From the IMG/VR virus record IMGVR_UViG_3300028048_002585: a stretch of 64,000 bases of DNA. One strand, written 5' to 3'. The notes below the pieces were generated by a model, which saw nothing but the letters and a program-made list of their open reading frames with translations, did no database searches and had not been told where the DNA came from. Source of the DNA: an uncultured virus (IMG/VR IMGVR_UViG_3300028048_002585) (lineage: Duplodnaviria; Heunggongvirae; Uroviricota; Caudoviricetes). Shown piece by piece: positions 4,014 through 64,000 of this stretch (its first letter is position 1; every line of letters starts with the position of its first letter). The position numbers were made by a program, and so were the translations under genes.

Positions 4014-4016
4014 CTT

Positions 4017-28086: not shown

Positions 28087-28410
28087 TCATATATTGCTCC
28101 CTCCATTTATAAATTCCCTCAGTTCTTCTATATCTTTAAATAATCCGTCGCAGAGGTTTCTTATCTTTTCTCTTCGATATTCATTCCTGCTTATCAGTGG
28201 TTTAAATAATATGACATTTCCATCTATCTTCAACTTTTCAACGAAGCCTTTCGTGGTCAGATTATTGAGCGTATTATTTACATCATTTCTTATTATTTTT
28301 TTATAAGATTTAATGTATTCCTGACGCACTTCCGCTACAGTGGCTGATGGAAAAGCTGTTTTATAAAGACATATAAGTATTTCTTCCTCTTGATTAGTCA
28401 GCTTGTTCAT
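28087..28410 (-). CDS. BlaI/MecI/CopY family winged-helix repressor
   Basis: LTNQEEEILICLY...ATVAEV...NTLNNLTTKGFV...FKPLISRNEY. Confidence 0.8.
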   Translation of the reverse strand: MNKLTNQEEEILICLYKTAFPSATVAEVRQEYIKSYKKIIRNDVNNTLNNLTTKGFVEKLKIDGNVILFKPLISRNEYRREKIRNLCDGLFKDIEELREFINGGSNI

Positions 28411-31063: not shown

Positions 31064-31082
31064 TATTAAAGAGGTGATTTCA

Positions 31083-33347: not shown

Positions 33348-34724
33348 TTATATATTTCTGTAATCTTTATTTAATCTTTCAGCGACAACTCTTGCTAATG
33401 GACTTCTTGTGCTTTCCTTTTCATCAAAACTACATATCTCACATAATGGAGAACCTTTCATAAGTTCTATCGCATATATAAGCCCATTATTACGCTGATC
33501 AAGCCGTGGTGTGTCAATCTGCGTATTGTCACCGATTAATACAATCTTTGTTCCTTCCGATGCTCTGCTTATGATACTCTGTATCTGACTTGGTGTACAG
33601 TTCTGAGCCTCATCAATAATGACATATTTTTTAGGAATAGATCTACCCCTGAGATATGCAATAGATTCGGCTTGAATAATGCCACTATCAAAGAAGTATT
33701 TTATCTTTTCATTGAGATCATTTGTCGTATCGTTTTTTTCACCTAATAAAACACCTAAATTATCATATATGCCACGCAGGAGCGGATCAATCTTTTCACG
33801 TTCCGAACCCGGAAGATGTCCTAATTCTTCATCCATAGTAACATTTGCACGGCATACAAGTACGTTTTGGTATTTTTTATTTTCAGTAACCTGTTCAAGT
33901 CCACAGGCGAGAGCCAATATCGTTTTACCTGTTCCCGCCGGGCCGTTTATAATCGTAAGCGGATGGTTTGTATAATCAGATAAAAGAGCTTCCATTGCAT
34001 AATGCTGTCCTGCATTTCTGGGTGATATCCCGTATGGGTTTTGACAGTCTTTTATATTATATAACGCTGACAGATACTCTCCGTTGTATTTACACAGCAT
34101 TGATCCACCGTTATATGTCTTTAGATTTATAAATTCATTCTGTGTCAGATTTATAAATGAATCTGTTTCGGGAACAGGGATCATTCCTTCCTTGGCAAAT
34201 CTGTTCATATCTTCTTCGGATATATATCTTTCAGAACGCCCGGAATAGATTTCGTATTCAGAAGACAATCTGTCATTCTTGTACTCTTCTACTTCTATTC
34301 CCATTATGTCTGCTTTGAGGAGCATATTTATGTCGTTGGTAACAAGTATCGTCCGTGTCTTGTCTCCTTTTGATATATGGTCCCTATCAAACTGCTTTGC
34401 AACGAGCAGAATGAGGTTGTCTTGCTTATTTCTGTCCCATCCTTCGGGAAGCAGGCTGAAATCGGCATCTCTCTCAAACAGAAGGTTGATTGTTCCACCG
34501 TCCTCAGTTTTTACGCCTTTTTTCAGATCACCTCTGTCACGGTAGTCCTTGATCAGCCTCAGAGCGGCTCTTGCACAGTACCCTCTGTCGGTTCTTTCTG
34601 CCTTAAATTTATCCAACTCCTCTATAACAGGGTATGGAATATATACATTGTTGTCTTCAAATTTGTTTATGCTTTCAGGGTTGTGAAGAAGTATGTTTGT
34701 GTCAAGAATATAGTTTTTCTGCAT
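33348..34724 (-). CDS. PIN-PhoH family protein (YlaK-like)
   Basis: ILDTNILL PIN domain; GPAGTGKT, YLRGRS, IIDEAQN, GDNTQID. Confidence 0.93.
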   Translation of the reverse strand: MQKNYILDTNILLHNPESINKFEDNNVYIPYPVIEELDKFKAERTDRGYCARAALRLIKDYRDRGDLKKGVKTEDGGTINLLFERDADFSLLPEGWDRNKQDNLILLVAKQFDRDHISKGDKTRTILVTNDINMLLKADIMGIEVEEYKNDRLSSEYEIYSGRSERYISEEDMNRFAKEGMIPVPETDSFINLTQNEFINLKTYNGGSMLCKYNGEYLSALYNIKDCQNPYGISPRNAGQHYAMEALLSDYTNHPLTIINGPAGTGKTILALACGLEQVTENKKYQNVLVCRANVTMDEELGHLPGSEREKIDPLLRGIYDNLGVLLGEKNDTTNDLNEKIKYFFDSGIIQAESIAYLRGRSIPKKYVIIDEAQNCTPSQIQSIISRASEGTKIVLIGDNTQIDTPRLDQRNNGLIYAIELMKGSPLCEICSFDEKESTRSPLARVVAERLNKDYRNI

Positions 34725-35251: not shown

Positions 35252-37372
35252 TTACAGTTTAATCTTCAGCCTTGATATCCTATGCTTTATATTTACATTC
35301 CTGATACCACAGTTTATGGCTTTCGGTGAAGCGCAGAGGATGAGAAATTCTTTTGCTCTGGTCACTCCCGTATAGAGCAGATTCCTTTCTAGCATAAAAT
35401 AATGCTGTGTTACTATAGGCATGATGATGACGGGATATTCGGAACCCTGTGACTTATGGACAGTACAGGCGTAAGCGAGTACCAGGTCGTCAGAGTTGGT
35501 GTCGTTATACTCTACGCTCATGTCTCCGAAACTTACCATCATTGTCTTATTTTCTTCATCGTATGATGTTATTATCCCAACATCTCCGTTATATACACCA
35601 AGTTTATAACTGTTCCTCGTCTGCATGACCTTGTCTCCGACACGGAAATCTCCGAGCATGCCGGATACCTTTTCTCCTTCAGGATTGACAATTTCCCTGA
35701 TCTCCTGATTTATGCTATCTGTGCCGAGCTTTCCTGTATGCTGAGGGGAAAGGATCTGAACATCCATGATGCTGTATCTCGTAAGTGAGTTTTTTGTCAG
35801 CATGAGGATGTACTTGAGAATATCGTCGGCTTCCATATCTGTCGTATTATAAAAAAATACATCCTTTCCGTTCTCACATTTTGGCATGTGACCTTTATTA
35901 AGTGCATGTGCGGTTTTTATTATGTCACTGCCTTCGGCTTGTCTCTGAATCTTTGTAAGCCTTACTTTTGTATATTTGTCGTTTTCCACTATGTCTTTCA
36001 GAACTGTTCCCGGACCAACTGATGGAAGCTGATCTATGTCTCCAACAAGTACAAGTGACATCTCGTTCGGAATCGCTGCAAGGAGTGATCTCATCAATGA
36101 TATATCGATCATGGATGACTCATCGACTATGAGAACACTCTTCAGACCTTCTCCGAGCGGATTGCTTCTGTTTCTTGAAAATCCTTCTCCGTTAAATTCA
36201 AGAAGTCTGTGGATGGTCTTTGCCTCCATTCCTGTTGCTTCCTGCATTCTCTTTGCGGCTCTTCCGGTCGGAGCGGCACATATGATATAATTTCCAAGCT
36301 GTCTGTGTGCTTCTATTATGCCCTTTACTGTCGTTGTCTTACCTGTACCCGGACCACCTGTAAGTACCATCAGTCTCTTCTGTGTTGAGAGATATATGGC
36401 CTGCTGCTGTTCTTCGGTATAATCTATTCCTGTTTTATGGATGACATCTTCTGTTACGTCTTCGTTGAACATTTCCGTATTCATGGCTCTCAGGGATGCT
36501 GCAACTTCACGTTCATCATAGTAGAGTCCTTTTGTGTACAGGAATCCGTTCTCTTCGATTATGTTTCCTTCTGATATCATCTTGATGCATTCGGGCACGA
36601 TATGCTCTTCAGCTACTTCAAGAGTTTTTCCGGCTTCCTGATAAAAGTCATTGATCGGGTAGCATACATTGCCGAACTCGGTAAGTTCCGTAAGCTTAAA
36701 TACTATTCCTGCATCTATTCTGCGTGGATCTTCCCTGGCTATACCCATCTGCTGGGCAATCGCATCAGCCACTTTAAATCCCACTCTTTTTATATCATTG
36801 ATAAGCTGATAAGGATTCTCCTTCACCTTTTCAGCCGCATCTTCTCCGTATTGCTTGTATATATTGATAGCCGTCTTTCCGTATATTCCTATGCGTGCAA
36901 GACTTTTTATGGCTGACTGTTCGTTATTCTGTTTATTCCAGCTATTTATGATCTTTTCAAATTGCTTGTCTGAAAGATTAAGCAGATTTTTTATCTTCTC
37001 GGGTGATTCCTTGAATATTCTTTCTGTGTCAAATTGAAATGTCCCGACAATGGTCTTTGCTTTTTTCTTTCCAATACCGGCTATATTGTCGATCAAATAT
37101 CTTTCGATGCCCTGCAATGTAAGAGCCGTCCTTGGTACTGCTGTTTTTCCCTTAAACTGCCAACCGAATGAAGGATGTTTTTCAAAGGCTCCGTATACGG
37201 TAAAACAGTCTCCCGGCAGGACTTTTACGGCACTAAAAATAACAGTTATGGTTCCGTTATATGAAGGTGACTTACATACACAGATATAACTGCTGTCCTT
37301 TTCGTATCTTATCCTGACTACTTCTATATCCAGTTCAGGCATTTTCAGGAAATCTTCTAAACTAAGTTCCAT
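35252..37372 (-). CDS. recD2: RecD2/TraA-family SF1B helicase
   Basis: GIGKKKA HhH, GGPGTGKTT, APTGRAAKR, VDESSM, GDIDQLPSVGPG, TVHKSQGSEY, LYTGVTRAK. Confidence 0.93.
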   Translation of the reverse strand: MELSLEDFLKMPELDIEVVRIRYEKDSSYICVCKSPSYNGTITVIFSAVKVLPGDCFTVYGAFEKHPSFGWQFKGKTAVPRTALTLQGIERYLIDNIAGIGKKKAKTIVGTFQFDTERIFKESPEKIKNLLNLSDKQFEKIINSWNKQNNEQSAIKSLARIGIYGKTAINIYKQYGEDAAEKVKENPYQLINDIKRVGFKVADAIAQQMGIAREDPRRIDAGIVFKLTELTEFGNVCYPINDFYQEAGKTLEVAEEHIVPECIKMISEGNIIEENGFLYTKGLYYDEREVAASLRAMNTEMFNEDVTEDVIHKTGIDYTEEQQQAIYLSTQKRLMVLTGGPGTGKTTTVKGIIEAHRQLGNYIICAAPTGRAAKRMQEATGMEAKTIHRLLEFNGEGFSRNRSNPLGEGLKSVLIVDESSMIDISLMRSLLAAIPNEMSLVLVGDIDQLPSVGPGTVLKDIVENDKYTKVRLTKIQRQAEGSDIIKTAHALNKGHMPKCENGKDVFFYNTTDMEADDILKYILMLTKNSLTRYSIMDVQILSPQHTGKLGTDSINQEIREIVNPEGEKVSGMLGDFRVGDKVMQTRNSYKLGVYNGDVGIITSYDEENKTMMVSFGDMSVEYNDTNSDDLVLAYACTVHKSQGSEYPVIIMPIVTQHYFMLERNLLYTGVTRAKEFLILCASPKAINCGIRNVNIKHRISRLKIKL

Positions 37373-39206: not shown

Positions 39207-40130
39207 TTAGTCCTCATTCTCCATATTGTCGTATCCTGCTTCAACATCATCGTCCGTGATCTCGTCATAATTATTATTGATGGTATCTTCGTTTACGATA
39301 AATTGTGAAAGCTTACTGTTTCGGAGTATCTCTTCTCTCCTCCGCTGCTTAATTTCTGCTACTTCTCTATCTGAATAGAAATTACTGTTATACTCTGTTT
39401 CATAAGGAACTATCTCCAGTGCTCTGTCCATCCAGTCATATACTGTTCCGCATGTCGGACACGTTGCATGACGGTTAATGCTTCTTGCCTGAAGACATCC
39501 GTCTATGGTAACGCTGGTCCCGAGATGAATACGTTCTTTGTCCACTATGGCATTCTGACCGTATGACTTGACCCATGGGAAGTCTTTTCTGATGGACGGA
39601 TCGTCTTCCCGGACTGTGTATTTTCTATCTATGGCGAGCTGATACTGCGTGACGATAAGCTTTTTCTTTGGGCGTATCATCTTGGGCTCCCTGCAGATGT
39701 CACCTTCTATAAATACTCGGTTTGATATTTCTCTTATATCGTTGAGAAATGACAGGGCATTCTCTTTGGTTTCAAGCATATACTTATTTTCTACATATAT
39801 AGGCTCTATATAGATGGTTACACCCTTCTCTAAACCCAGATTTCCGCAGTCGGGACATCTGTGAGGCTTATTAACAAGTCTTGTAGACACTATTCCTGTC
39901 ACCCTGACAGCCATGTTGTATTTCCACTCGACCATTTTTGCCTTAATCTTGGGATTACGCGACATTACGATCGGCTGATCTATCTTTACAGTCTCCCTGT
40001 TGTCACCTATATGTCTGTATCCGCGGATAATGGCTATAACGGCGACCTGTTCCTCTACTCCGTTAGCATGAACGTTTGTTCCTGTCTTGAGGACTACGCC
40101 CTCAACATCAACTACATTTAAGATTGCCAT
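39207..40130 (-). CDS. Tandem OB-fold SSB-like protein with zinc-ribbon inserts
   Basis: NVVDVEGVV and NRVFIEGDICREP...LAIDR...GCLQAR; CPDCG and CPTCG; acidic tail. Confidence 0.7.
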   Translation of the reverse strand: MAILNVVDVEGVVLKTGTNVHANGVEEQVAVIAIIRGYRHIGDNRETVKIDQPIVMSRNPKIKAKMVEWKYNMAVRVTGIVSTRLVNKPHRCPDCGNLGLEKGVTIYIEPIYVENKYMLETKENALSFLNDIREISNRVFIEGDICREPKMIRPKKKLIVTQYQLAIDRKYTVREDDPSIRKDFPWVKSYGQNAIVDKERIHLGTSVTIDGCLQARSINRHATCPTCGTVYDWMDRALEIVPYETEYNSNFYSDREVAEIKQRRREEILRNSKLSQFIVNEDTINNNYDEITDDDVEAGYDNMENED

Positions 40131-43485: not shown

Positions 43486-43679
43486 ATTTTTCTCTGCATT
43501 AAATGCTTTTCCTTCCGTAAATCTGATATATCTTCCCCACTTTGATTTTAGTTTATTTTATATTAACGTATATGTCAATAGAATTTTTCGTCTTTGGTTC
43601 GATTCTTTAGTCGGTTTTTACTCAAAAAAAGACCCCATACTTCCGAAAAGTATGAGGTCAATTTTTTATGGATCAGTGA

Positions 43680-46070
43680 TTATTTTGCATGAGCTTTCAG
43701 CCAATCGGCTGCAGCTGTATCACCTTCGTATCTTGTTCCGTCAGGATCAATGATAGTCGGCGTCTGCATGATGTTCAGCTCGCGTGCTATATCCATGTTC
43801 TGGGTGCAATTTATTTCATTATATCTTACACCAGCGATACGGAATCTCTGCTCCGCTCCCTTGCATCGTGGACAGTGATCTTTTGTGTACATTGTCGGGA
43901 TCACGGTGTCCGACTTAATATCGTTCATTTCGATATCTTTCTGCTTATCTACAGGTTCTGACATAATCTCAGGCTTTTCATGTGTAAGCTTGCTATCAGA
44001 TATATTATAAACCTTTCTGTCCTTAAATTCCTGTTGCTTACCATCATTCCAATTCTGAACCGGGCGGTAATAACCGGTTATACGGCTGTAGACCTCGGTT
44101 TTCTCCTTGCAATGAGGGCAGACAGGCTGCTCACCTATTAAATATCCGTGATTCTTACATACGGAATATGTAGGTGACATTGTATAATATGGAAGCCTGT
44201 AATTTTCCGCAATCTTTCTTACGAGTGTTGCAGCTGACTTCCAGTCAGGAAGCTTTTCTCCAAGGAATGCATGGAATACTGTTCCTGATGTATAAAGTGT
44301 CTGAAGATTATCCTGTACATCAAGTGCCGAGAATATATCCTCTGTATATCCTACAGGAAGATGTGATGAGTTTGTATAATAAGGAGTTCCGTTCATGTTT
44401 GCTGTGATGATATCAGGGAACTCTTCCTTATCATGCTTTGCGAATCTGTATGTCGTAGATTCGGCAGGTGTTGCCTCAAGATTGTAGAGGTCGCCGTACA
44501 TCTCCTGATAATCACTGAGACGCTCTCTCATATGTGTAAGAACTTCTGCAGCGAACTTCTGTGTTTCTTTATTTGTCAGGTCTTTCCTCAGCCACTTGGC
44601 GTTAAGTCCCACCTCGTTCATACCTATAAGTCCGATCGTTGAGAAGTGGTTGTTGAATGTACCCAGATATCTCTTTGTATAAGGATAAAGCCCTGCATCG
44701 AGAAGCTGAGTGATGACTGTACGCTTTGTCTTGAGTGACCTTGCTGAAATATCCATCAGACGGTCTAGCCTCTTATAAAAATCCTCTTCATTTTCTGACT
44801 GATAAGCAATTCTCGGAAGGTTGATGGTTACAACTCCGACAGATCCTGTTGATTCTCCGCTTCCGAAATATCCTCCGGACTTCTTTCTGAGCTCTCTCAG
44901 ATCAAGCCTCAGACGACAGCACATGCTTCTTACATCGCTCGGTTCCATATCGGAATTGATGTAATTTGAGAAGTATGGAATTCCATACTTTGCTGTCATT
45001 TCGAATAGAAGCTTGTTGTTTTCTGTCTCACTCCAATCGAAATCCTTTGTTATTGAATATGTCGGTATCGGATACTGGAATCCACGTCCGTTGGCATCGC
45101 CTTCAATCATGATGTCAAGAAATGCCTTGTTGACCATGTCCATTTCCTTCTGGCAGTCTCCATATGTAAAGTCAACCTGCTTTCCTCCTACCCAGCACTG
45201 CTCGTCTCTCATGTCTCTCGGAACTGTCCAGTCCAGAGTTACGTTAGTGAACGGTGACTGCGTGCCCCATCTTGAAGGTGTATTAACTCCGAAGACGAAG
45301 CTCTGGATACACTGCTTGACTTCTTTCTGTGTCAGGTTGTCCTTCTTTACGAAAGGTGCAAGGTATGTGTCAAACGATGAAAATGCCTGAGCACCTGCCC
45401 ACTCATTCTGCATGATGCCGAGGAAGTTTACCATCTGATTGCAGAGTGTTGAAAGATGTGCCGCAGGAGCGGATGTTATCTTTCCCGGAACTCCGCCAAG
45501 GCCTTCCTGAATAAGCTGTTTGAGTGACCATCCTGCACAATAGCCTGTAAGCATGCTGAGGTCATGGATATGAATAGCTGCACTTCTATGTGCTTCTGCT
45601 ACTTCCGCATCATAAACCTCACTAAGCCAGTAGTTCGCTGTAATTGCTCCAGAATTTGAAAGGATGAGTCCTCCGACGCTGTATGTTACAGTCGAATTTT
45701 CCTTAACGCGCCAATCGTTGATCTTAAGGTAGTCATCAACTACCTTCTTATAGTTAAGGCTCGCTTCTTTTACATTACGAACCTTTTCACGCTGTTTTCT
45801 ATAAAGGATATATGCCTTGGCAACATCTGAATAACCTGCTTCGGAGAGTGTCTTTTCAACGCTGTCCTGTATATCCTCTACGGTTATCGCATTATCCTTG
45901 ATTTTGTTTTCAAAATCACTGGTAACGCGAAGTGCGAGCAGATCGATAACGCTCAGGTGATACGGTTTATCGCATCCTTTAAATGCTTTTTCAATCGCTG
46001 CGCTGATCTTCTTTACATCAAAATCTACTGTAGTGCCGTCTCTTTTAACGACATTGTATAAGTTCTTCAT
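43680..46070 (-). CDS. nrdD: Anaerobic (class III) ribonucleotide reductase with ATP cone and C-terminal glutaredoxin-like domain
   Basis: VVKRDG ATP cone, SMCCRL, TPAES, CxxH/CxxC, YSRITGYYRP glycyl loop, CPRC tail. Confidence 0.95.
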   Translation of the reverse strand: MKNLYNVVKRDGTTVDFDVKKISAAIEKAFKGCDKPYHLSVIDLLALRVTSDFENKIKDNAITVEDIQDSVEKTLSEAGYSDVAKAYILYRKQREKVRNVKEASLNYKKVVDDYLKINDWRVKENSTVTYSVGGLILSNSGAITANYWLSEVYDAEVAEAHRSAAIHIHDLSMLTGYCAGWSLKQLIQEGLGGVPGKITSAPAAHLSTLCNQMVNFLGIMQNEWAGAQAFSSFDTYLAPFVKKDNLTQKEVKQCIQSFVFGVNTPSRWGTQSPFTNVTLDWTVPRDMRDEQCWVGGKQVDFTYGDCQKEMDMVNKAFLDIMIEGDANGRGFQYPIPTYSITKDFDWSETENNKLLFEMTAKYGIPYFSNYINSDMEPSDVRSMCCRLRLDLRELRKKSGGYFGSGESTGSVGVVTINLPRIAYQSENEEDFYKRLDRLMDISARSLKTKRTVITQLLDAGLYPYTKRYLGTFNNHFSTIGLIGMNEVGLNAKWLRKDLTNKETQKFAAEVLTHMRERLSDYQEMYGDLYNLEATPAESTTYRFAKHDKEEFPDIITANMNGTPYYTNSSHLPVGYTEDIFSALDVQDNLQTLYTSGTVFHAFLGEKLPDWKSAATLVRKIAENYRLPYYTMSPTYSVCKNHGYLIGEQPVCPHCKEKTEVYSRITGYYRPVQNWNDGKQQEFKDRKVYNISDSKLTHEKPEIMSEPVDKQKDIEMNDIKSDTVIPTMYTKDHCPRCKGAEQRFRIAGVRYNEINCTQNMDIARELNIMQTPTIIDPDGTRYEGDTAAADWLKAHAK

Positions 46071-47136
46071 AAGCTGTTCCTCCTTTTCTATCGCTTATGT
46101 AGGTGATATAATCTACCACCTTTCTGATATCATCCAGATGCGTTATCATAAACTGTTTTGCATCCGGGCTATCGTGAATAATTTCTGCAAGTTCTTCTCT
46201 TCCCTTCTCTTTTAAGAATTCATCCGGATCCTTGTATGGAGCAGGAAGGATGACTCGGTGTACCTCAAATCCCATATGCTGAAGCATTGGTATGGCTTTT
46301 ATAGAGGCGTTTATACCTGCCTGATCATTGTCCTGCATGATATAAATCTTTGTCTTATTCTTGAGCAGCTGACACTGTTCCGGTGTCAGGGCTGTTCCGA
46401 GAGATGCCACGGCATTGATGAATCCTGCCTGATGCATCTTCAGTACATCCATATAGCCTTCACAGAGTATGTAAGATGTACATTCTGCCGTTTTTGCTAT
46501 ATCGTATCCGAAGAGCAGTTCTCTCTTTCTAAAGATGACCGATTCTGATGAATTAATGTACTTCGGTACATCATCGTTCTTTTCGAGAATCCTTCCACCG
46601 AATGCTACTGTATCTCCGTATGAGTCTTTGATCGGTATCATGAGTCTCTTCCAGAAGACATCTATCGGTTTGTCATCTTTAAGGCGACAGAGCTTTGTTT
46701 CAAAAATATCCTCCTTGTTATGTCCCTGCTTTATCAGGTATTTATACAGTTTGTCACCGTATGAACCTGCATAGCCGAAATCATAATCTTTGAGGCTAAA
46801 CCCTCTGTCTTTAAGATATTGGGCCGCTCTTTTATTCAGGTTATTCTTATAAAATTCTCCTGCGTCGGAAAGAATGGCTTTATATCTCTTCATTTCATCA
46901 GTTTCAGATGGTCTGCCGGGTGATTTTATATCAAGTACCGGAGGCTCTTCCATCTTCAGCTGATGAATAAGATCGTCAATTTTACCACCTCTGCCTTCCC
47001 GGAGGTCGGAATAGGTATTTTTCTCTGTATCGATTATGAGAAGCGGAACTGATGATCTCTGATATGGAAAACGTCCTATAAGGTATTTGCCATGGACCTT
47101 GAATCCGTTTTCCATTAAAAATTTTCTCCAATCCAT
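46045..47136 (-). CDS. dnaG: DnaG-type primase with degenerate zinc-binding domain
   Basis: AFGGR, PKYINS, CEGYMDV, ASLGTA, DNDQAG, KDPDE. Confidence 0.92.
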   Translation of the reverse strand: MDWRKFLMENGFKVHGKYLIGRFPYQRSSVPLLIIDTEKNTYSDLREGRGGKIDDLIHQLKMEEPPVLDIKSPGRPSETDEMKRYKAILSDAGEFYKNNLNKRAAQYLKDRGFSLKDYDFGYAGSYGDKLYKYLIKQGHNKEDIFETKLCRLKDDKPIDVFWKRLMIPIKDSYGDTVAFGGRILEKNDDVPKYINSSESVIFRKRELLFGYDIAKTAECTSYILCEGYMDVLKMHQAGFINAVASLGTALTPEQCQLLKNKTKIYIMQDNDQAGINASIKAIPMLQHMGFEVHRVILPAPYKDPDEFLKEKGREELAEIIHDSPDAKQFMITHLDDIRKVVDYITYISDRKGGTAYEELIQCR

Positions 47137-50601: not shown

Positions 50602-50670
50602 TATTATGTATAAATTTGGATTGCATAAAAAAAGAGCCTGTACAAATCAATGTACAGACTCGATTTTTTA
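50602..50670 (-). promoter_or_regulatory. dnaE terminator plus class A promoter module
   Basis: GAGTCTGTACA..TGTACAGGCTC-T7; core at 50602-50613. Confidence 0.75.
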
Positions 50671-53600
50671 AATCACATTCGGGAGTGATTTCACTTCCTC
50701 TGATACCGTATATGTCGCCTTTCGGATCTCTCCGAGTGCTTCATCATAGATATTGAGGGTATTTCCATTCTCGTTTCCGTATCTGCTTATAAAATCATCC
50801 TCTTTAAACAGGTGGAAGTGAGCGTATGAAGGAACCTTTAATGTGTATTCCTTCTTTTTCTTTTCAGCAAGCTCTATGGTTTCTGGGAAGTATTTTCTCT
50901 CGATGACAGGATTACCTTCTTCATCAAGATACTCTGTTTTTTCTTCTCTTAATTCACCTGATAATATGATTACATTTCCTTCTTCAAGGATAGAACCATA
51001 TTTCTCATAGTTTTTAGTGAACACGTTTACTGTGAGAAGCTCCGTGCCGTCGTTAAGGGTAATGAAAGCCATTTCCTTCCCGTCGGACTTTCTCTGCTTC
51101 TTTTCCAGTGTTTCTATAACTCCATAGATCCTACATCTGTCAATTGCCTCATCTATCGGTGTTACACCGAGCTGTTCATGATCCGGATAATCCTCAAGTG
51201 GGCTCTTTGATACGAATGTTCCGAGAAGCTTTTTTTCTTCCTTCAGTCTGTCGTTGGAATCTTCAGGAATAGAAACCGGCATTACTATTTCTCCAAGGCA
51301 TCTTTTTGCATTGTCGTACTTTGTGATGGCCTGATCGTAAGCCTTGGTTCCTTCTTCGGCTTCATCAATCATCGCTTTCGTATCTCTTACCTTTTTAACC
51401 GCTGCCTTCATTTCCTCTGATACTGCGAGCATTGCCTGTCTGTTATCACAGAAGCAGTCGAATGCACCTGCCTTTATCAGGTTTTCGGTAGCTGTCTTAT
51501 TGATATTGGTTCTCATGAAGAAATCTCGGAATGACTTAAATTTGCCATTCTTTCTCTCTATAAGTATTTCTGCCGCCGATGAACCGACGGACTTGACTGA
51601 TTTCATTCCGAAAATTATATCACCGCCTGCTACAGTGAATCCTGTTCCGGCAGTATTTATATCCGGTACGTCGGTCTTTATGCCAAAATGCTTTGCCTCA
51701 TACATAAGACCGCTGATTTTTTCGAGTGGTGCCCAGTTGAGAGCGGCTGCTATAAATTCTGCAGGATAATAGCATTTCAGCCAGCCTGTAATATAAGCAT
51801 TATATGCGTATGTTGCTGCATGTGACTTGTTGAATGCATATTTTGCGAACTCGGACATCTGGTCAAACAGTTTGTTGGCCGCTTCCTCAGATATGCCGTT
51901 GGCAACACAGCCATTGATATTCCTGCTGGCATCACCGTGGATGAAAGACTCTCTCTCATGAGCAAGCTTGTCGATTTTCTTCTTTGACATATAGCGGCGT
52001 ACATTGTCTGCTGCGCCAAGGCTATAGCCGGCAAGATCCTGGAATATCTGCATAACCTGCTATAGTGATAGGTAAACCTTTGATATTATCTCTGGTTTTT
52101 CCCCCACTCCACACGGTACGTGCGAGTTTCCCCGCATACCGCGTTCCATCATTATCATTTATCGTTAAATATCTAAATAATTATCCGTTTCTCTTTAGGC
52201 ATAGGGTATCACCTTCTTATCTTCCACTATTTAGTGTTTGAAGGAGCTTTTTTTGTCATACTCGAATCCCTATGTTAAATTATATGATATAACGTTACTT
52301 TGATAATGACTTGTGTCCATTCCTCTATCTTCATTACAAAGATTTCATCGGTTCGAACACTACTTTTCAGCATTGATTCAATTGCTTATTATAGGAGTTA
52401 TCCATTTTCGTCAATTTATATTCATTACTGAATACTCAATACCTTTCCGTGTTCCAATAACTCTATCCTTTATCATATACCCTTAGGTTCCTATTATAAG
52501 CCTGCTAGCTTGAATATACCTTTAATATATTATGGATTTTCATAACCAAGATTTTTACTCATCCACACTAGCATCCATTTCGAATGGCATTCATGCATTT
52601 CTGCATGTTCGTATCTAGACCCTTTAAATCACAGGTTCGTCCGTCATTAAGACATACTAACCATAGGTATTTTATGGACTACCGGCATATCATTTTCCAT
52701 ATTTTGTACTAATAATTTTCATACAGGTGGACTCTAGTCTCTTTTGTACCAATATTACTTGTTATATTCCTCTACTTAGGAAAACTTCTGCCGACTTCAC
52801 CGAGCTTCATACAACTAAATTTTCATTATATGTTGCATGTCGGAGTATTATAGAGTATGTTTCAGGACGTTACTCCATCATTCCATACTTCGAGTTATTA
52901 GTTCAAGATTTATTTCTCTAAGCTTTTGATACAGGCGAACTCTAGTTCATTTTTTTACCAATATTTACTAACTTATTTACTCTAATTCTTGCTCAAGCTT
53001 TTCACTTGAGAACGCGTCGCACCCTGGTATACAATCGCACCGTATGTCTTGCCGATGATAGGCGCGAGCTCAGGTGTTATGTATTCCGGTTCTTTTCCAT
53101 CATTTTTAACGGCGATGACTCCGTCAATGAATTGGAGCGGACCCGGGCGGAACATGGATACCAGTATGATCAAGTCTTCAAAACATTCCGGTCTGAATCT
53201 CTTGAGCATGTTTTTCATACCACTCGACTCAAACTGAAATATTGAGTTAGTTTTTCCACTCTGAAAAATGTCCTTATAAACCTTCGGGTCATTAATTTCA
53301 AGATTCAGAGGGTCGATATCTATACCTTTTTTACTCAGCATCTTGAGTGTGTCGGTTATGATATCAAGTGTCTTGAGACCAAGGAAATCCATCTTGAGAA
53401 GGCCCTTAGCCTCAGTTTCTACCATGTCGCACTGGGTTGTCCACTCTGAGAGCTTGTCATTCCAGCGCAGAGGTATGTATTCACTTACATCATCATTATC
53501 ACTGATAACGATTCCCGCGGCATGAGCGCCGTAGTTGGTAAAACTGCCTTCTATAAGTTCTGCCCATCTGATTATCTCAAGAGCATCTTTATTTCCGGCA

Positions 53601-55597
53601 TAATCTCTCTTCAGCATCTCCGATATGGCGATCTCTTCTTCACCTCTCATAATCTTACTGCCAAAGTGTATTTTCGGCTCAGCTGGGACTTTCTTTGCCA
53701 TCTCATCTGAAAGATGGAGAAAAGCTCCTTCCTTACCGATCTTCTGTCCGTAATACTTTGCAGTAATACGGATTGCTCCACGAGGAGCCTGCGCGTTCTG
53801 TGTCATGATACCGCATACGGCATTTTTTCCGTATTTGTTTGTTACGTATTCGATAACCTTTGGTCGCACATTTTTAGCGATATCTGAATCGATATCCGGC
53901 ATACTTACTCTCTCTACGTTAAGGAACCTTTCAAAAAGAAGATCGTACTTAAGCGGATCAAGCGAAGTGATACCGAGAAGGAAGCAGACAAGTGAACCTA
54001 CAGCAGATCCTCTTCCCGGACCTATTGTAAATCCTGGTTCCGCTCCAATATTCTTAATATATTCCTTTAACTCTTCTATAGTAAGTGGAGCTTCTTTGAC
54101 CTTGTCTGTCGGAATGTATCCGAGAAGTCTTCCGTATTCGAGGAAATCGCGGACTATCAGATGATAATCAACGTATCCCATTCCTTTGATTACTTTAACT
54201 TCTCTTTCGAGTCTTTTCTGATATTCTTCATCCAGACCATCCGGAAAGCATCTTTCAACGCCTTCAGCTATCAGTCTGTCAAATATCTGTTCCGAAGTCT
54301 CGCCTGTATTTGATTTATAAACAGGGTAGTGATCTTCTTTTGGAAACTCGACATTACAGGAATCAATGATGTATTTTATATTCTTGATCCCCTTTTCTAC
54401 TACTGCTCTTGGCAATATCTCTGAGATGATGTCTTCCAGTTCTTCGTCTGATTTGATATAGAGCTCGGAATCTCCTACTGACGGTTCCTGCCACTTTCCA
54501 AATCGAAGAGCTTTCAGGATATTTCTCCTCAAGATTTCTTCCTCTGTGCCTTCAACGATATGAACATCGTTTGACGCAACTACCGGAAGTCCTGCCTCGA
54601 CAGCGATGCGTGCTACCTTTGGGTAAATTTCCGCTTCTAGCGGTATCCTATGATTCTGGATCTCGATGAAAAAATTGTTGTCACCAAAAAGCTCATTGAA
54701 CTCTTTTGCTGTACTTACAGCTGAGCCGTAGAGTTCCTCTTCCGGTAACATTTTTGCTGACACTTCGCTAATTTTCTCAGATATCTCTTCATACTTTGAA
54801 GCACTCTCGCGTAATTCCTTGAGCTCTTTTTCATAAGTGCTCTTTCTTTTTGTGAGAGCCGTCACCTCTTTCTTTATCTGAATGAGGCGTTCAGCAGCTT
54901 CTGCCGCTTTTTTCTTGTCATCCTCAAGAGCCTTTCTGGTCTGTTCCTTTTCGGAACCTTCAGGCATCTTGGCAAGAGATTTTTCTCTGAAAGTGAACTT
55001 TGTCTCAGCAGTTTTCTTTGTCATCTCTCTTTCATCTTTTTTTATTTCGAGCTTTTCGAGCACTTCTTTCAGATCAGCTTCTTCATTAAGGAGACGCTTG
55101 TCTGTAGGTGCTATGTACTTTGCTCTTCTTCTTTCGAGCTTTTCGATCTCATCTCTTAATTCGTCGTTAGCTCGTAACTTCATTGCGATAACACCCTGTA
55201 TGCAGGCGCTGGTAGCAATGATGTTGTTGTGACCGGATGTTCCCGGCCCAAAATACTTTTTAAGGATCTCAAGGTTCATTACGGCCTTTCCGTCCTTATT
55301 GTTCGACTTTGTCACAGCCTGCATCAGTGCCTTATATCCTTTATAATTCTTGGATATGAGGATCAGATGACATGTACTGATACCATCGTCGTAATATGCT
55401 TCGCAGCCGGGGATGAATTTTAGTCCTGCTTCCTCTGCCGCATGTCTCATCAGCTCAACAGCTGACAGTACGCCGTGCTGGGTAAGCACGAATCCTTTTG
55501 CCCCCAATTCTGCGAGCTTCTTCACTACTTTTTCGGGATCATTCTGTGAATCGTACTGATCCAGGCAGTGAAGATGTATCTCTCCATATTTTGACAT
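50668..55597 (-). CDS. dnaE: DNA polymerase III alpha subunit; exons 55597-53023 and 52061-50668 (1322 aa spliced)
   Basis: PHP HLH, GPGRGSAVGS, MPDIDSD, HAAG, KMDFLGL, FNKSHA, OB fold; splicing restores YGAIVYQEQVMQ. Confidence 0.95.
52062..53022 (-). mobile_element. ORF-less group II intron (961 nt) in dnaE
   Basis: 5' GTGCG, 3' ...CACTAT; domain V ACGCGGTATGCGGG-GAAA-CTCGCA-CG-TACCGTGT (52144-52111); removal rejoins G|AG (Glu) in frame. Confidence 0.93.
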
Positions 55598-55629
55598 CTT
55601 AATCACTCCTTTCATTTTTCTCCTTGGAT

Positions 55630-55680
55630 TGTCAATAATTTCATGTATATTATGTATAAAAACGTGGTGGCTGAAAAAAC
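55630..55680 (-). promoter_or_regulatory. Class A promoter with extended leader for dnaE
   Basis: Core at 55648-55659. Confidence 0.75.
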
Positions 55681-55736
55681 ATACCCTTTGTATTCTTTCA
55701 ATGAATGCGTGATTTGAACTAATTGTATTTTTATTA

Positions 55737-55765
55737 TTGACATATACGTTAATTCATTATAAAAT
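55737..55765 (+). promoter_or_regulatory. Near-consensus sigmaA promoter with class B operator driving an ncRNA
   Basis: TTGACA-TATACGTTAATTCATTA-TAAAAT. Confidence 0.8.
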
Positions 55766-55776
55766 AATTTTAATTT

Positions 55777-55865
55777 AAGCGAGCTAACCGGGACTGGGAG
55801 CTTTACGCGAGTCAGTCGGCGGAGAGTATGTCACACGGTTTCGATACACGGTGATTCGTTTACCA
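55777..55865 (+). ncRNA. Putative tRNA-like small RNA ending in CCA
   Basis: GC-rich island between promoter and terminator; AAGCGAG/TTCGTTT-A-CCA stem; TTCGA loop. Confidence 0.6.
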
Positions 55866-55906
55866 AAAAAAGAGCTGGACAAGTTTGATGCCAGCTCTCT
55901 TTTTTT
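55865..55906. terminator. Bidirectional terminator
   Basis: A7-GAGCTGG...CCAGCTC-TC-T7. Confidence 0.75.
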
Positions 55907-56531
55907 AATCAAAAAGCCTTATTATTCTTTTAGGCTTTCCTCCGAGCTTTTCATAAATTTCCCGTACTTCACGGTATTTATTTAAAATCTCGGTTCTGAG
56001 AGGTTCTTTATAATCATTGAATATCCCCTCATAAAATCTCATTCTCTCGTCAGCCCTTTCCATAAGCATATATCGGATCGTTTCGGGATCTATCTTATAT
56101 ATGTCCTGAAGCTTCGGAAGTTCTTTTGCCCCTGGATTATATATTCCGATGGCAATAAGTTCTTCTGCTGTCAGAGGCAGGAGAATTTCTTCCTTTTTAC
56201 TCGGGACATTTCCCTTTAGAAGGTATTCCTCCGCTCCGCCGAGAGCATCCCCTATCTTTTCGCAGATCTGCGGAAAAGACAGGTCTTCACCCTGTAGCAG
56301 GAAGTAGTTCTTTACATAGGAAAATGCATCGAAGTTTTCCCCACAGGTGTAGCAATGCGTTGATTTTTCGTACACCGCATTGTGGTTGCAGTGAGTTTCG
56401 GAATGTTGTCCCGAAACACATTTGCAATAGAGCGTACTGCCGGAGCGGTACAACTCATCCTCTGAGCATATATACCTGACGATCTGTGCCATGTTAATGT
56501 CAGATTTTAGCCGTTCGAGATCGTACTGCAT
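55905..56531 (-). CDS. Stand-alone CHC2-like primase zinc-finger protein
   Basis: CKC...H...HCYTCGENFDAFSYV; start moved to 56531 after AAGGAGG; class A core at 56579-56590. Confidence 0.7.
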   Translation of the reverse strand: MQYDLERLKSDINMAQIVRYICSEDELYRSGSTLYCKCVSGQHSETHCNHNAVYEKSTHCYTCGENFDAFSYVKNYFLLQGEDLSFPQICEKIGDALGGAEEYLLKGNVPSKKEEILLPLTAEELIAIGIYNPGAKELPKLQDIYKIDPETIRYMLMERADERMRFYEGIFNDYKEPLRTEILNKYREVREIYEKLGGKPKRIIRLFD

Positions 56532-56701
56532 GTCAGTACCTCCTTTCTTTCTCCTTGGATCGTCAATAATTTCATGTATATTATGTATAAAAAACAACTG
56601 TACGAAAATATAAAAGCCGCATGGAAGCGGCTTTGTATATGTTTTATATCACAACATTCGGCGGGAAGAATGGACAAACTTCTTTTTATAGTGCTTTATA
56701 T

Positions 56702-58146: not shown

Positions 58147-59256
58147 CTATCTTTCACCGACGTCTGCCTTACTTAGTATCTTTACGACCTTGGCCTTGCT
58201 GCGCTCTATTCTGTGAACAATGAATTCCTTGTCTTCATCGCTGATCGTTGGGAAGGTCTTAACCAGATGTATCATGTCACTGAAATCTATATCCCTATTT
58301 TCAATCCTTATTCTCATCTTATCGAGAGCCTTCTGTTCCTGCTTTTTGAACATTGCTGCATTCTCTTTTGTATCAAAGAATGCTGACCCTGAATCGAATA
58401 AAGGAGCGTAATCTACAAGCTTGCCCGTTTTGACATTACGTATAAAGCCAAAATTATTGAGATGACGGTCCGTATTATAGATCATACTGTCAACTGCTAT
58501 CATTGCCTGAAGATATTCGTCGCTCTTGTTTTTAGGAATGCCATATTTTTCAGCCATTTTTACTATGTGTGCGTATATTGTTTCGTTCTTTTTATCACGC
58601 TTTTCCTTGAAGTAAATCTGTGACACGGGCACATATTCTGTATCCTTGGTCACAAAGTTGTCGCATATCGAGCAGATCTGAAGGCCATCTACTGTCAGAG
58701 AATATTCCACGAACGGTATTACCTGCAGTTTTTTCAGCATCATGGATGTCAATACCTCTGCCACCGGACTTTGTCCGCATGTAGCACTTCCTGATTTAAT
58801 CAGCTTGGATGCTTTTGTATCATCCTGTATCCATCTTTTTCTGCAGACTCCGCCTGTCGTCAGATCTGGGTTTTCTTTCCTCAGCTGTCTAAGGTCTACC
58901 GTCCATGGTTCAAAGAATATACGCCCCGTCTCTGTATGATAAGTATTGGTGAAGAAGTTGAGTTTCTCCCATTTTTCCTTATCGACGTATTTAAACCAGT
59001 ATTGATCCGACAAAGAAAACATGTTGTGATAGTTCTCAAATGAGAATTCCATCCGGGCTTCCTTTATACCCTCTCTTGTATCAGGAATTATTCGGGTTTC
59101 AAGCCACTTATTCACTGATTCAAGTGTAAGGTTATCCTGCAGAACAATGGGAAGATGCTTTTCATCTATTGTTTCGTACAGCTTTATGATGTACTGACCT
59201 TCTATTTCACATTCAAACAAAGGATATTCCTTGTTCATGCAGGTTGCTCTCATCAA
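58147..59256 (-). CDS. HipA/CtkA-like Ser/Thr kinase
   Basis: SLSDQYW, TGGVCRKRW, LIKSG, AEV, NTDRHLNNFG, APLFDSG. Confidence 0.85.
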   Translation of the reverse strand: MMRATCMNKEYPLFECEIEGQYIIKLYETIDEKHLPIVLQDNLTLESVNKWLETRIIPDTREGIKEARMEFSFENYHNMFSLSDQYWFKYVDKEKWEKLNFFTNTYHTETGRIFFEPWTVDLRQLRKENPDLTTGGVCRKRWIQDDTKASKLIKSGSATCGQSPVAEVLTSMMLKKLQVIPFVEYSLTVDGLQICSICDNFVTKDTEYVPVSQIYFKEKRDKKNETIYAHIVKMAEKYGIPKNKSDEYLQAMIAVDSMIYNTDRHLNNFGFIRNVKTGKLVDYAPLFDSGSAFFDTKENAAMFKKQEQKALDKMRIRIENRDIDFSDMIHLVKTFPTISDEDKEFIVHRIERSKAKVVKILSKADVGER

Positions 59257-60105: not shown

Positions 60106-62514
60106 TTAATATTGCTGTAAGAAATTCATAGGATCCTGTAATACACCATTTATATATACACCAAAATGCAAGTGAGGACCAGTCGAATTTCCAGTATTTC
60201 CTGAATAAGCTATTGGCTGACCTGCTGTTACTGTATCTCCGTTGTTTACTATGAACCCTGAAAGATGATAGTAACAGTTCTTTGTACCGTCCCCACAATC
60301 TACTATGACTGTGTTTCCCGTTGACCAGTGATATGATCCATCTACATAAGTATATGCCGTTCCGCCGTTGGATGCAATAACTAAGCTTCCTTCCGGACAA
60401 GCAATATCAATTCCGCTATGAGTACCTCCCCATCTCGGTCCATACGGAGATGAAATTGTGTGACTGCTAGGAACAGGCCATTGCCATGAACCTGAACCGC
60501 CTGCTCTATGTTCTCCTGTTACTGCGTATATTATATACATATATACACATACACTTTTAAACATTCTTTTATCCATATGTATAAGGCTGCGGTCGGGATT
60601 CTCGTATATATCCATCCATACAGTTGTAGCTGCCTCTATTTTGTCATGGACATTACCTGCTGAATTAATTGCAGTTCTCATTTTACTGACTACTGAATTC
60701 TGATATTCATGATATGAACATGTATAACCATCTACACCTTCGGGAAATGTTTCTATTAAGACGTATTCCGTCTGCATAGTAAGACTGTCTATCAAAAATG
60801 AACTGTGATGCTTATCTGCATAATGTTTGGCGTAGTCGTATAAACCTCTTCTACGGGAGGATGCTGTCCACTGTGCTATTCCGTATCCGAAATAATGACT
60901 TGCAAAATCATTTCTTGAATAATATCCTGAGTTTACATATGACGTATACGTGTTATCATCGAGATATGTTCTGCCATATTCTACGCGGCCCGGTTCCATT
61001 TCATCTGATTCGTATGCCAAATTTCCGACAATTCCTGCGGTCATGAAGAATGCCTCTTCCTGATCTATTCCCTGTTCATTTACTAAATACGAATAAACTC
61101 TCTGGCTTACTATTTGTTCATTCTGGTTCAAGTCAATGAAATCAAAATCTCCCATGAACCATCCAAAAACATCCAGTACAAGAGCAAATACCGGAATAGC
61201 AATTACCACTACCATTAATATTATAAAAAACGTTCCGCCTCCTATTACTCCAAGTAAGGCCGCAACTGTTTTGCCTTTTATATATTCAAATGCCAGCTTT
61301 GCCGAATCCCTGGCTATGTTATCGCTCTGAGCGAGATTTGCTGTTGTTGCAACTACGGCAGCCTTGCCAAGAGCTTTGTCGGTCTTGCTTTTTTCCTTTT
61401 TAATCGTTTTCTTGTGTCGAGCTGAAGTGTTTTCTGATCCTCCTCTCAATTTATCTAATTTAGAATCCAGTTTCGAATCTTTTCTTTTAATGTCATTTTT
61501 ATCTATATCTTTGTCTTTTGATTTATTCTTTTCGGCAGTTATATGTTCTGTACGTACATCTTTAGATTCTGTTACCGATTTCAGTTCATTTTCACGTCGT
61601 TCTCTTATAGAACGTCCTCCGTCAATAATATTTTCGGAGTTTCCCTGTTTGTTTTTCGATTTATCCTGTCTTCTTACGAATATGTCTGTCTGTTCTTTAG
61701 ATTCAACTCTGTCTTTGTATTGCCTTATTCTGTCTTCGTGATACTTTGACGCATTTTCTCCGAATTCAGATACGCCTTTTTTTAAAATATACATTTCCTG
61801 CAGAGTTTTTACAGGATCTGCTTCTTCTGGCTGAGAGTTTATGTTTGCCGAATCAGATGCCTTTTCGCCCATTTTCTTCGCTAAGAGAATTCCTCCCGCT
61901 ACGGCAGCAGGATGATTTTGAGCAAAATTCCCGGCATCAGACACAAGCTTGTCTACCTTATGTCTTTTTTCAAAGTTTTTTCTGATTGCAGCTTCTTTAT
62001 CATAATTCAGATTTCCGTCTGAAGCGAATACTTTCTCGGGCTTGAGATATTTGATATCCTTTTCCTTGGTTCCTGTTCGGATATAGAATTCTTTGGTTTC
62101 GGGGTTATATACGACTTTCTGTCCACGGGCATTGTCAAGGGTTTCCGTCTCATATCGCTCTACCTTGTATATTGCCCTATCATATTCTACCGCTCCTTCA
62201 TGCTCTGAAAAAGATACTTTATCGATATCAGCCTCTATCCTGAAGCCGTAAAACGAGCCGTCATCATTAACGCCGTATGCCGCAAATACACTGCCGTTAT
62301 CTCTGTCCACGTCTACGCCGAATGCGCCGTTTTCAAATGCGTCATTCGTATAATCAGTTATCAGCTGGTCTTTATCGGCAAACCTGTCATAGAATTCAAG
62401 GGTTGAAATGTTCCTCTGTTCTATAACGGTATTTCCTCTGCTCAGGGTAACACTTATGGTTCCATCGTGGTTGTTATTCAGTTTAAGGTTTTTATCCGCA
62501 TTTTTTTCAACCAT
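60106..62514 (-). CDS. Conjugative cell-wall hydrolase: TM helix, phage-tail-lysozyme-like domain and M23 peptidase
   Basis: AGIVGNLAYES, GYGIAQWT; HSGIDI, YYHL, GNSTGPHLHF. Confidence 0.9.
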   Translation of the reverse strand: MVEKNADKNLKLNNNHDGTISVTLSRGNTVIEQRNISTLEFYDRFADKDQLITDYTNDAFENGAFGVDVDRDNGSVFAAYGVNDDGSFYGFRIEADIDKVSFSEHEGAVEYDRAIYKVERYETETLDNARGQKVVYNPETKEFYIRTGTKEKDIKYLKPEKVFASDGNLNYDKEAAIRKNFEKRHKVDKLVSDAGNFAQNHPAAVAGGILLAKKMGEKASDSANINSQPEEADPVKTLQEMYILKKGVSEFGENASKYHEDRIRQYKDRVESKEQTDIFVRRQDKSKNKQGNSENIIDGGRSIRERRENELKSVTESKDVRTEHITAEKNKSKDKDIDKNDIKRKDSKLDSKLDKLRGGSENTSARHKKTIKKEKSKTDKALGKAAVVATTANLAQSDNIARDSAKLAFEYIKGKTVAALLGVIGGGTFFIILMVVVIAIPVFALVLDVFGWFMGDFDFIDLNQNEQIVSQRVYSYLVNEQGIDQEEAFFMTAGIVGNLAYESDEMEPGRVEYGRTYLDDNTYTSYVNSGYYSRNDFASHYFGYGIAQWTASSRRRGLYDYAKHYADKHHSSFLIDSLTMQTEYVLIETFPEGVDGYTCSYHEYQNSVVSKMRTAINSAGNVHDKIEAATTVWMDIYENPDRSLIHMDKRMFKSVCVYMYIIYAVTGEHRAGGSGSWQWPVPSSHTISSPYGPRWGGTHSGIDIACPEGSLVIASNGGTAYTYVDGSYHWSTGNTVIVDCGDGTKNCYYHLSGFIVNNGDTVTAGQPIAYSGNTGNSTGPHLHFGVYINGVLQDPMNFLQQY

Positions 62515-62537: not shown

Positions 62538-64000
62538 TTATTTAGGGGATTTGTTCGTATCCACCAGCTCAAACATCTTCGTTCCTTTAGGTATCTCAAG
62601 TGCGAACGGAAGGGTCGTGTCTCCGGTATATATGAGCCCGTGTCCTTTAGGCTGACTCTTACAGTATTTTTCAAGCTGTGCGTCCTGAATCTGGATCAGG
62701 TCTGCCATGTTGTTACGGTCCTGTGCTGACATTGATGTCATGAGTACGAAGTTTGTCAAGTTAAGGATATCTCGCGTTGCCGTACTGCCTAACAGATCTT
62801 CTACGTTCTGAGTGATTCCCGTGGGCACTCCTTTCCATTTACGGGCTGTTTTCCATATTGTTTTCAGAAAGTTCGCTGACGATTCAAGCTGAAGAAGGAG
62901 ATGGAACTCGTCGATATATATCCATGAGTATATACCCTTCCTGCTGTTGCTTATCATTTTACTCCATATATCGTTGAGAGTTATATAAAGTCCCAGAGGC
63001 TTCATTCCCGCTCCGAGTTTAGAGATATCGTATACGACCATTCTTTTATTCGTCGATACGTTGGATCGGTGTGCAAATATATCTGATGTTCCTGTAGCAT
63101 ATATCTCAAGTATGTTTGCTATCTGATCTGCATCAGGACTGTCCTGTCTTCTCAGTTCGTGATAAAGATTGCTGATCGTCGGAGCCGCATCTTTGTCGCA
63201 TGTGATCTCGGGATTTCTCTGGTTCAGTTCTTGTATATGGGCAATATATCCCTGATATATCTTTTTTACACATCTATCGATTATGGATCTGCATCTCGGG
63301 TCGAGTGCTTCTCCTGTGCCGTTCATAATCTCTATCATTCCTATTATGAAATCTGATTTGAGTGCTATTGGGTTATCCTCGCCGTCGGAAGCCAAATCAA
63401 GATCAAGGGGATTTTCAAAGTTCTTTGATGAAGGAGACAGCTCAACTACTTCGCCGCCTACTGCTTCTGCAATTGGGATATATTCCCTCTGGGGATCTAT
63501 GACATATACAACGTCTTTTGTACTTCTTAACAGGATAGACATTATCTCCCATTTCGCTATACCCGATTTTCCGGAGCCTGAGTCTCCGAAAAAGAGTGCA
63601 TTGAAATTTCTGATTAATGCGCTATCATTATGTCTGTCGTAGATAATCATCTGCCCAGATGTCTTATTCATACCATAAAAAGCTCCGTTCTTCTGATGTA
63701 ATTCCTGCGAAGTATAAGGAAGCATGATCGAACAACATTCCGATGTAAGCAGCATCTTTGTGTCAAGCTTGTTTACTGAAAGAGGGAGGCAGGAATTAAG
63801 TCCTTCTTCCTGCTGAAACATCAATACCTGAAATGGGGTATGATGAGGTTTCGATATGGACTTCAGTTGCGTAAGGATTGCCTGCATCTCTTCATTATCC
63901 GATGCAAATACGGTGACTGTAAATGTCAGGAAGAATACACCCTGGTCGCGCTTATCGATATCGTCCATCATTTCCAGTGTCGCTGCTTTATTGGATCTTA
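62538..64000 (-). CDS. VirB4-like T4SS ATPase (5' part outside the window)
   Basis: GDSGSGKS, VIDPQREY, NPLD, YIDEFH, ARKWKG..TGITQN. Confidence 0.92.
   Translation of the reverse strand, partial: RSNKAATLEMMDDIDKRDQGVFFLTFTVTVFASDNEEMQAILTQLKSISKPHHTPFQVLMFQQEEGLNSCLPLSVNKLDTKMLLTSECCSIMLPYTSQELHQKNGAFYGMNKTSGQMIIYDRHNDSALIRNFNALFFGDSGSGKSGIAKWEIMSILLRSTKDVVYVIDPQREYIPIAEAVGGEVVELSPSSKNFENPLDLDLASDGEDNPIALKSDFIIGMIEIMNGTGEALDPRCRSIIDRCVKKIYQGYIAHIQELNQRNPEITCDKDAAPTISNLYHELRRQDSPDADQIANILEIYATGTSDIFAHRSNVSTNKRMVVYDISKLGAGMKPLGLYITLNDIWSKMISNSRKGIYSWIYIDEFHLLLQLESSANFLKTIWKTARKWKGVPTGITQNVEDLLGSTATRDILNLTNFVLMTSMSAQDRNNMADLIQIQDAQLEKYCKSQPKGHGLIYTGDTTLPFALEIPKGTKMFELVDTNKSPK

Follow-up and report, generated by a model that had tools for sequence, protein, structure and literature searches.

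A candidate small-RNA gene with its own promoter and terminator next to dnaE in a large conjugative element of rumen Clostridia

The interval 55737-55906 of the viral record IMGVR_UViG_3300028048_002585 (64,000 nt; this whole stretch of analysed DNA is called the window below) reads as a small, independently transcribed non-coding RNA gene of one lineage of a large rumen-Clostridia conjugative element, an interpretation to which we assign a probability of about 0.5. The operational marks of a small-RNA gene, namely its own promoter, its own intrinsic terminator and no coding frame, were all found here. The first-pass annotation had proposed a stand-alone ncRNA rather than a decoding tRNA, and this proposal fits the promoter family, the terminator, the lack of a credible ORF, the plus-strand fold and the absence of a tRNA call, which together make it plausible and no firmer than that. 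The features of the unit and its two neighbours are as follows.

55737-55765, plus strand: sigma-70-type promoter, with the -35 TTGACA at 55737-55742, a 17-nt spacer and the -10 TAAAAT at 55760-55765
55737-55753, plus strand: class B 17-mer, TTGACATATACGTTAAT, the first 17 nt of the promoter
55772-55776, plus strand: predicted transcription start at about 55772 and short AAUUU leader, placed by the usual -10 distance
55777-55865, plus strand: GC-rich structured body of 89 nt (from fold, GC and shuffles)
55777-55782 with 55856-55861 (nt 1-6 with nt 80-85), plus strand: closing stem P1 of the MFE fold
55783-55827 (nt 7-51), plus strand: long arm A, with stems GCU/AGU, CCG/CGG, GACUGG/UCAGUC and GC/GC
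55830-55855 (nt 54-79), plus strand: bulged hairpin B, with the loop UUCGAU (UUCGA at 55840-55844)
55862-55865, plus strand: 3' ACCA, read from the sequence
55866-55906, both strands: bidirectional intrinsic terminator, made of an A-run, the hairpin 55872-55897 and a T-run at 55899-55906
52982-55615, minus strand: divergent first exon of dnaE, with PHP, Pol III alpha and the beginning of the finger domain (by Pfam)
55905-56597, minus strand: convergent gene for a CHC2 (DnaG-type) zinc-finger protein (weak primase-like matches; Atlas)

The window carries a large conjugative element of rumen Clostridia. Integrase, relaxase, coupling protein and VirB4-type ATPase were among the Pfam domains found, and the genes identified in this way included the following.

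6133-7164: tyrosine integrase
29856-30314: SSB (another, weaker SSB domain within 39207-40130)
31074-32153: Mob_Pre relaxase
32266-33336: coupling protein
33348-34724: PIN-PhoH
35252-37372: RecD2
43680-46070, minus strand: NrdD, anaerobic ribonucleotide reductase
46045-47136: DnaG
60106-62514: M23 peptidase/lysozyme
62538-63971: TraG/VirB4-type P-loop ATPase

The NrdD protein also has a C-terminal glutaredoxin-like domain (residues 726-767, E 1.4e-5). In the left 6 kb (1-6100, plus strand), the genes run in the opposite orientation, the GC skew is strongly positive, and many small ORFs lack a Pfam family; class B promoters precede three of these. Near-identical DNA was present in 20 of the 24 sequencing runs listed, from 12 studies, and those that carried a label were all bovine or sheep gut metagenomes.

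The strongest new evidence for a transcription unit at this site comes from the promoter, which is a predicted member of an element-specific promoter/operator family. The TTGACA-17-TAAAAT promoter reported by the first-pass annotation is present at 55737-55765, where it matches 11 of 12 consensus positions in a promoter scan and points into about 95 nt of non-coding sequence followed by the terminator. The pattern TTGACA-N17-TAWAAT occurs twice in the 64-kb window (0.06 expected), and the small-RNA promoter is one of the two. The class B operator claimed at the same promoter also held up, as the 17-mer there belongs to a motif with nine copies in the window (at most three mismatches) against 0.36 expected, a number reached in 0 of 100 shuffles. 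The consensus of this motif is TTGWYATATACGTYAAT, a TTGA-N8-TCAA dyad that forms the -35 and spacer of sigma-70-type promoters, and each copy provides both a hexamer resembling a -35 and a conserved spacer, followed 17 nt on by a hexamer resembling a -10. The motif scan placed the copies as follows.

Plus strand: 231, 1821, 4607, 19382 and 55737
Minus strand: 28443, 30970, 39120 and 43562

By our reading of these positions, six copies lie directly 5' of protein genes; those on the plus strand are 231, 1821 and 4607, and those on the minus strand are 28443, 43562 and 30970/39120, the last via a short leader. The copy at 43562-43580 (minus strand) shares 19 identical nt with the small-RNA promoter and stands before the gene for a 261-aa protein without a known family. 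The copy at 28443 (minus strand) precedes the gene 28087-28410, which encodes a 107-aa BlaI/Penicillinase_R-type repressor, and this repressor is a candidate for the protein that binds the class B motif. The copy at 19382 (plus strand) falls within a 133-aa minus-strand ORF and runs antisense to it, which means that a copy does not have to drive a gene. The motif was absent from the 31 loci searched, and the 48 single matches to the 17-mer in viral contigs were taken as chance because no contig had more than one.

A second motif family, class A, was observed in the same window. Its gene-strand form is TTTATACATAATAT-N3-TGAAATTATTGACA, and 20 copies were found (at most one mismatch in the 13-nt core) where 0.36 were expected, 19 on the minus strand and one on the plus strand. 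Examples, given in plus-strand coordinates of motifs that read on the minus strand, are 8926, 9700, 11009, 12224, 12909, 14546, 17631, 19055, 29776, 30882, 35159, 39036, 42597, 47179, 50601, 55647 and 56578. Each copy follows a terminator T-run by about 15 nt and precedes the RBS of a gene by about 10 nt, a placement that suggests an element-specific promoter or leader serving almost all gene cassettes. The pattern had 0 matches in viral contigs, and 401 genomes gave two single matches compared with five control matches. In our view, the two promoter motif families (20 and 9 copies) are the more solid and more general result in the window.

The terminator that had been claimed to follow the body was borne out, with a hairpin at 55872-55897 (inverted repeat I3, 14 nt, 93% complementary) that continues into TCTTTTTTT; a simple terminator scan, which allows loops of at most 8 nt, missed this hairpin, by our reading because its loop is longer than that. 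When the terminator was included, the fold of 55772-55906 had a z score of -3.03. The terminator (55866-55906) serves the convergent 230-aa gene as well, which has its stop codon at 55905-55907. The plus-strand T-run was considered as a sign of selection for the small RNA and rejected as such: four of the seven A-run hairpins in the window have a plus-strand T-run, and since bidirectional-looking terminators are this common, the T-run here need not have been selected for the small RNA.

The small-RNA gene is placed in a replication module by its neighbours, the CHC2 zinc-finger gene and dnaE. The convergent 230-aa protein has Atlas feature scores of 0.97-0.98 to CHC2 zinc-finger clusters. Its mechanical ORF probably starts at residue 23 (the protein has 208-230 aa, depending on the start); the class A motif at 56578-56590 falls in the first codons of the 230-aa ORF, and the Atlas sequence begins at residue 23. 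On the other side, the class A motif at 55647-55659 belongs to dnaE. The dnaE gene is itself split in the finger domain by a group II intron (52062-52906, minus strand) that has no reverse-transcriptase ORF and lies between the ORFs 52982-55615 and 50668-52053; the first ORF matches the Pfam finger profile up to position 118 of 166, and the second picks it up again at 122, and Rfam matches cover D1-D4 of the intron at 52671-52906 and D5/D6 at 52062-52146. A 369-aa protein 2.3 kb from the small RNA (58147-59256, minus strand) has a weak HipA_C kinase-like domain (E 2.3e-9), and no link between this protein and the small RNA was found.

Between promoter and terminator, the 89-nt body stands out by composition. 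The GC-rich segment named in the first-pass annotation has a GC content of 0.539, which places it in the top 0.53% of the 63,912 89-nt windows, compared with 0.25 in the flanking intergenic DNA. The segment had also been called ORF-free, which is right in that no credible ORF is present and inexact in that two mechanical ORFs (42 and 44 aa) overlap the body; both run through the terminator, and no Shine-Dalgarno sequence was seen before either when the sequence was read.

The body folds with an MFE of -26.5 kcal/mol and pair probabilities of 0.72-0.96. Two of the structural elements described beforehand, the central GACTG/CAGTC stem and the bulged hairpin with the TTCGAT loop, are both part of the MFE fold, with pair probabilities of 0.82-0.96. 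A third, the 7-bp acceptor-like stem followed by A-CCA, was recovered in part: AAGCGAG/TTCGTTT can pair over 7 bp, including two G·U pairs, and ACCA does follow, but the MFE fold uses six pairs, and the seventh (G7·U79) has a probability of 0.02 because G7 pairs with U51 instead. The fold contains four G·U pairs (G3·U83, G7·U51, G21·U36 and G54·U79), which become A·C mismatches on the opposite strand and thus make the fold specific to the plus strand; the minus strand of the body folds like a shuffle (z 0.03).

Measured against shuffled sequences, the beyond-chance evidence for the body is mixed, and this is where a reading without any functional RNA has to be weighed. According to that reading, a class B promoter was captured or duplicated beside a terminator and yields a short by-product or remains silent, and the fold and ACCA arose by chance in a GC-rich spacer. 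Several measures lean towards it: the MFE energy is ordinary (z -0.94; 37 of 200 shuffles, and 158 of 1000 in a second set, fold as well), a closing stem of at least six pairs arises in 63 of 1000 shuffles (6.3%), and a 7-bp stem (at most two G·U pairs) spanning 66-95 nt and followed by NCCA occurs at 26 sites in the window, compared with 23.5±4.3 in 20 shuffles. The acceptor-like stem and CCA, though present, therefore carry little weight. The class B copy at 19382 within a minus-strand ORF and the failure to find homologues in the collections searched (see below) point the same way. Against it, the MFE structure makes up 37% of the ensemble (frequency 0.37), a value that only 6 of 1000 dinucleotide shuffles reach, and an 89-nt block with a GC content of 0.54 in intergenic DNA of 0.25 is hard to explain as spacer. 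The GC contrast and the membership of the promoter in its motif family both exceed chance by far. The ensemble diversity of the body was matched or undercut in 52 of 1000 shuffles.

Sequence variation bears on the same question. A sheep-gut DNA contig that covers 55633-56400 differs from the window at 11 positions; none of these is in the unit (55737-55906), and three are in the 30 nt immediately before it, a distribution that argues against a spacer free to drift. By our arithmetic, the chance that 0 of 11 differences fall in the unit is about 0.06, which is a weak hint of possible constraint. Taking these lines together, we regard the absence of a functional RNA as unlikely, and continue with the small-RNA gene as the preferred reading.

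Conservation of the small RNA beyond near-identical copies was not found in the collections searched. A blastn search with the small-RNA region against phages and plasmids, and exact patterns run against genome contigs and viral contigs, gave empty or chance-level results. BLAST of the 89 nt against 400 Clostridia genomes (one unscored) produced matches at E<=1 in 82 of them, all of which were fragments of 15-33 nt on either strand. A single-sequence covariance model of the small RNA found only itself over the window and 23 dnaE-related loci (226 kb), scored in 0 of 5 genomes, reached at most 9.4 bits over the eight best BLAST loci, and gave one match over 48 viral loci (12.3 bits, E 0.33), nothing of which was credible. 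The 42-aa mechanical ORF was also used as a protein query, in case the RNA had been miscalled as an ORF in relatives, and yielded no candidate. For the neighbours, tblastn with the 230-aa protein returned no match in plasmids and two weak matches in phages, and no related locus was found among viral contigs with either the 230-aa protein or DnaE.

The loci of three DnaE relatives (L014, L015 and L001, with 65%, 50% and 45% identity, respectively) contain only a terminator and promoter region upstream of dnaE, a comparison that weighs little because their upstream genes are unrelated to those of the window. The idea that the small RNA is an insertion relative to these dnaE relatives is likewise weakened, as the upstream genes in L014 and L015 are unrelated, and a search for terminal repeats, inverted or direct, as marks of a mobile insertion gave nothing convincing.

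Metatranscriptome contigs from three runs of three studies cover parts of dnaE and of the 230-aa gene and nothing in 55692-55978, although such contigs cannot show the presence, ends or strand of small RNAs, which are often lost from such libraries. One of these three runs also contained a short piece at the class A motif (55630-55661) in a contig that continues as unrelated sequence.

If the interval is a small-RNA gene, its operation can be sketched from the predicted features. Transcription usually starts about 7 nt after the -10, and host sigma-70 RNA polymerase would start at about 55772 from the near-consensus promoter. As the class B motif forms its -35 and spacer, the RNA would be controlled jointly with the other eight class B units, including the one that encodes the BlaI-type repressor. 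Transcription would stop at the T-run 55899-55906, giving an RNA of about 135 nt. Its 89-nt body would adopt one dominant Y-shaped fold, built from a closing stem, a long arm interrupted by internal loops, and a short, bulged hairpin with the UUCGA loop, and 3' of the body a single-stranded ACCA and A7 tail would precede the terminator hairpin. A search for complementary targets by duplex folding against 205 translation-start regions gave a best value of -52.3, compared with a shuffle-best mean of -53.9±3.8 (30 shuffles). Given this lack of an outstanding complementary target and the rigid fold, a structured ligand or decoy for a protein may be favoured over a base-pairing regulator, and the small RNA would more likely act through its rigid structure on a protein partner than by base pairing.

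The candidate thus described resembles the stand-alone small RNA genes of Bacillota plasmids and conjugative elements, which combine a sigma-A promoter, a structured body and an intrinsic terminator. It shares with them the near-consensus promoter, a size of 90-135 nt, the lack of an ORF and the intrinsic terminator; like them, it belongs to a replication/transfer module, and its promoter is linked to a regulatory motif of the element itself. It differs from them in that it matches no Rfam 15 family, its target search stays at shuffle level and it is a prediction from sequence.

Improbable, in our judgement, is a cis-antisense regulator, in which the RNA would pair with the terminator of the CHC2 mRNA (about 40 nt) or with read-through into dnaE, leading to cleavage or block and uncoupling dnaE from the upstream operon; it is fully complementary to any read-through transcript from the CHC2 gene into dnaE. 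It is geometry only that argues for this: the two genes converge on one bidirectional terminator, and the body is flanked by that terminator and by the class A motif of dnaE. In type I toxin-antitoxin loci such as par of pAD1, a convergent antisense RNA and mRNA share a bidirectional terminator, and our locus has in common with these the convergent transcription over one terminator, which produces about 40 nt of perfect 3'-end complementarity. However, a perfect antisense RNA needs no well-defined, GC-rich autonomous fold, shared terminators are common in the window, and the partner is a gene for a 208-230-aa protein rather than a small toxin gene. A par-like type I antitoxin in the strict sense was rejected, as the partner encodes a CHC2 zinc-finger protein and not a short hydrophobic toxin.

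The small-RNA candidate belongs to no Rfam family and is neither a tRNA nor a tmRNA. ARAGORN, which had been suggested as a check, found 0 tRNA or tmRNA genes in the whole window and, at 80% and 70% thresholds, nothing at 55777-55865, in line with the earlier statement that this is not a decoding tRNA; the one tRNA called at lowered thresholds (55818-55904) is an artefact that crosses the terminator. For tmRNA, ARAGORN -m at 80% gave 0 genes, no Rfam tmRNA match was obtained and a tag reading frame is lacking. Rfam 15 at gathering thresholds matched only two group II intron segments in the window; on the plus strand of 55600-55950 at E<=10 the best matches had at most 16.5 bits (E about 7-10), none of them meaningful, and on 55768-55872 there were 0 matches at E<=10, including to tRNA (RF00005), tmRNA and tRNA-like families, so Rfam, also among the suggested checks, likewise assigned the candidate to no known family.

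These results also bear on the more specific proposal of the first-pass annotation, a tRNA mimic, for which we found no support beyond the features that had prompted it. In a sharper form, P1 stacked on hairpin B would make an acceptor/T-like minihelix ending in A-CCA, which might be bound by the CCA-adding enzyme, RNase P, a synthetase, or a nuclease or kinase. The likeness to tRNA and to the tRNA-like domain of tmRNA comprises a terminal stem of 7 bp whose third pair is G·U, an unpaired A followed by CCA, and a hairpin that adjoins the 3' strand of the stem and has UUCGA in its loop. The 3' strand of hairpin B runs unbroken into that of P1, as in tRNA, the UUCGA of the loop fits the T-loop pentamer, and the third-pair G·U and the A before CCA are presumably the identity marks of alanyl-tRNA synthetase (in tRNA-Ala, tmRNA and minihelices). 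In contrast to tRNA and tmRNA, the candidate has no D arm, anticodon arm or tag frame, a terminator follows its CCA and no detector accepts it. Hairpin B, with nine pairs, two single-base bulges and a 6-nt UUCGAU loop, is unlike a T arm of 5 bp with a 7-nt loop. The CCA is moreover internal in the primary transcript, followed by A7 and the terminator, and U55776 can pair with the 'discriminator' A. With the empty ARAGORN and Rfam results and the chance frequency of stem and NCCA added to these points, we consider an acceptor-end mimic very improbable.

A fuller version of the mimic is a long shot, and we record it for what it would imply. The conjugative element may make a minimal mimic of the tRNA acceptor end from a host-type promoter, in the form of a minihelix of 12-15 bp that has G·U as its third pair, A as the discriminator, CCA, and UUCGA in its loop. 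This would be freed from the terminator by 3' trimming and either charged with alanine or bound by an enzyme that reads tRNA ends or by a defence protein, and might serve as a decoy or signal on entering a new cell. Among the matches listed in a literature search, nothing concerned tRNA-like small RNAs of conjugative elements. If true, this would be a tRNA-end mimic without a cloverleaf on a conjugative element.

To our knowledge, few small RNAs of mobile elements from gut and rumen have been charted, and the present candidate, predicted in a single lineage, has its value as a lead. If transcribed, it would be an unclassified structured RNA that belongs to the replication module of a conjugative element widespread in the rumen and is tied to that element's own promoter/operator system, and its rigid fold with a tRNA-like 3' end would offer an entry point to how such elements address host RNA enzymes or defences.
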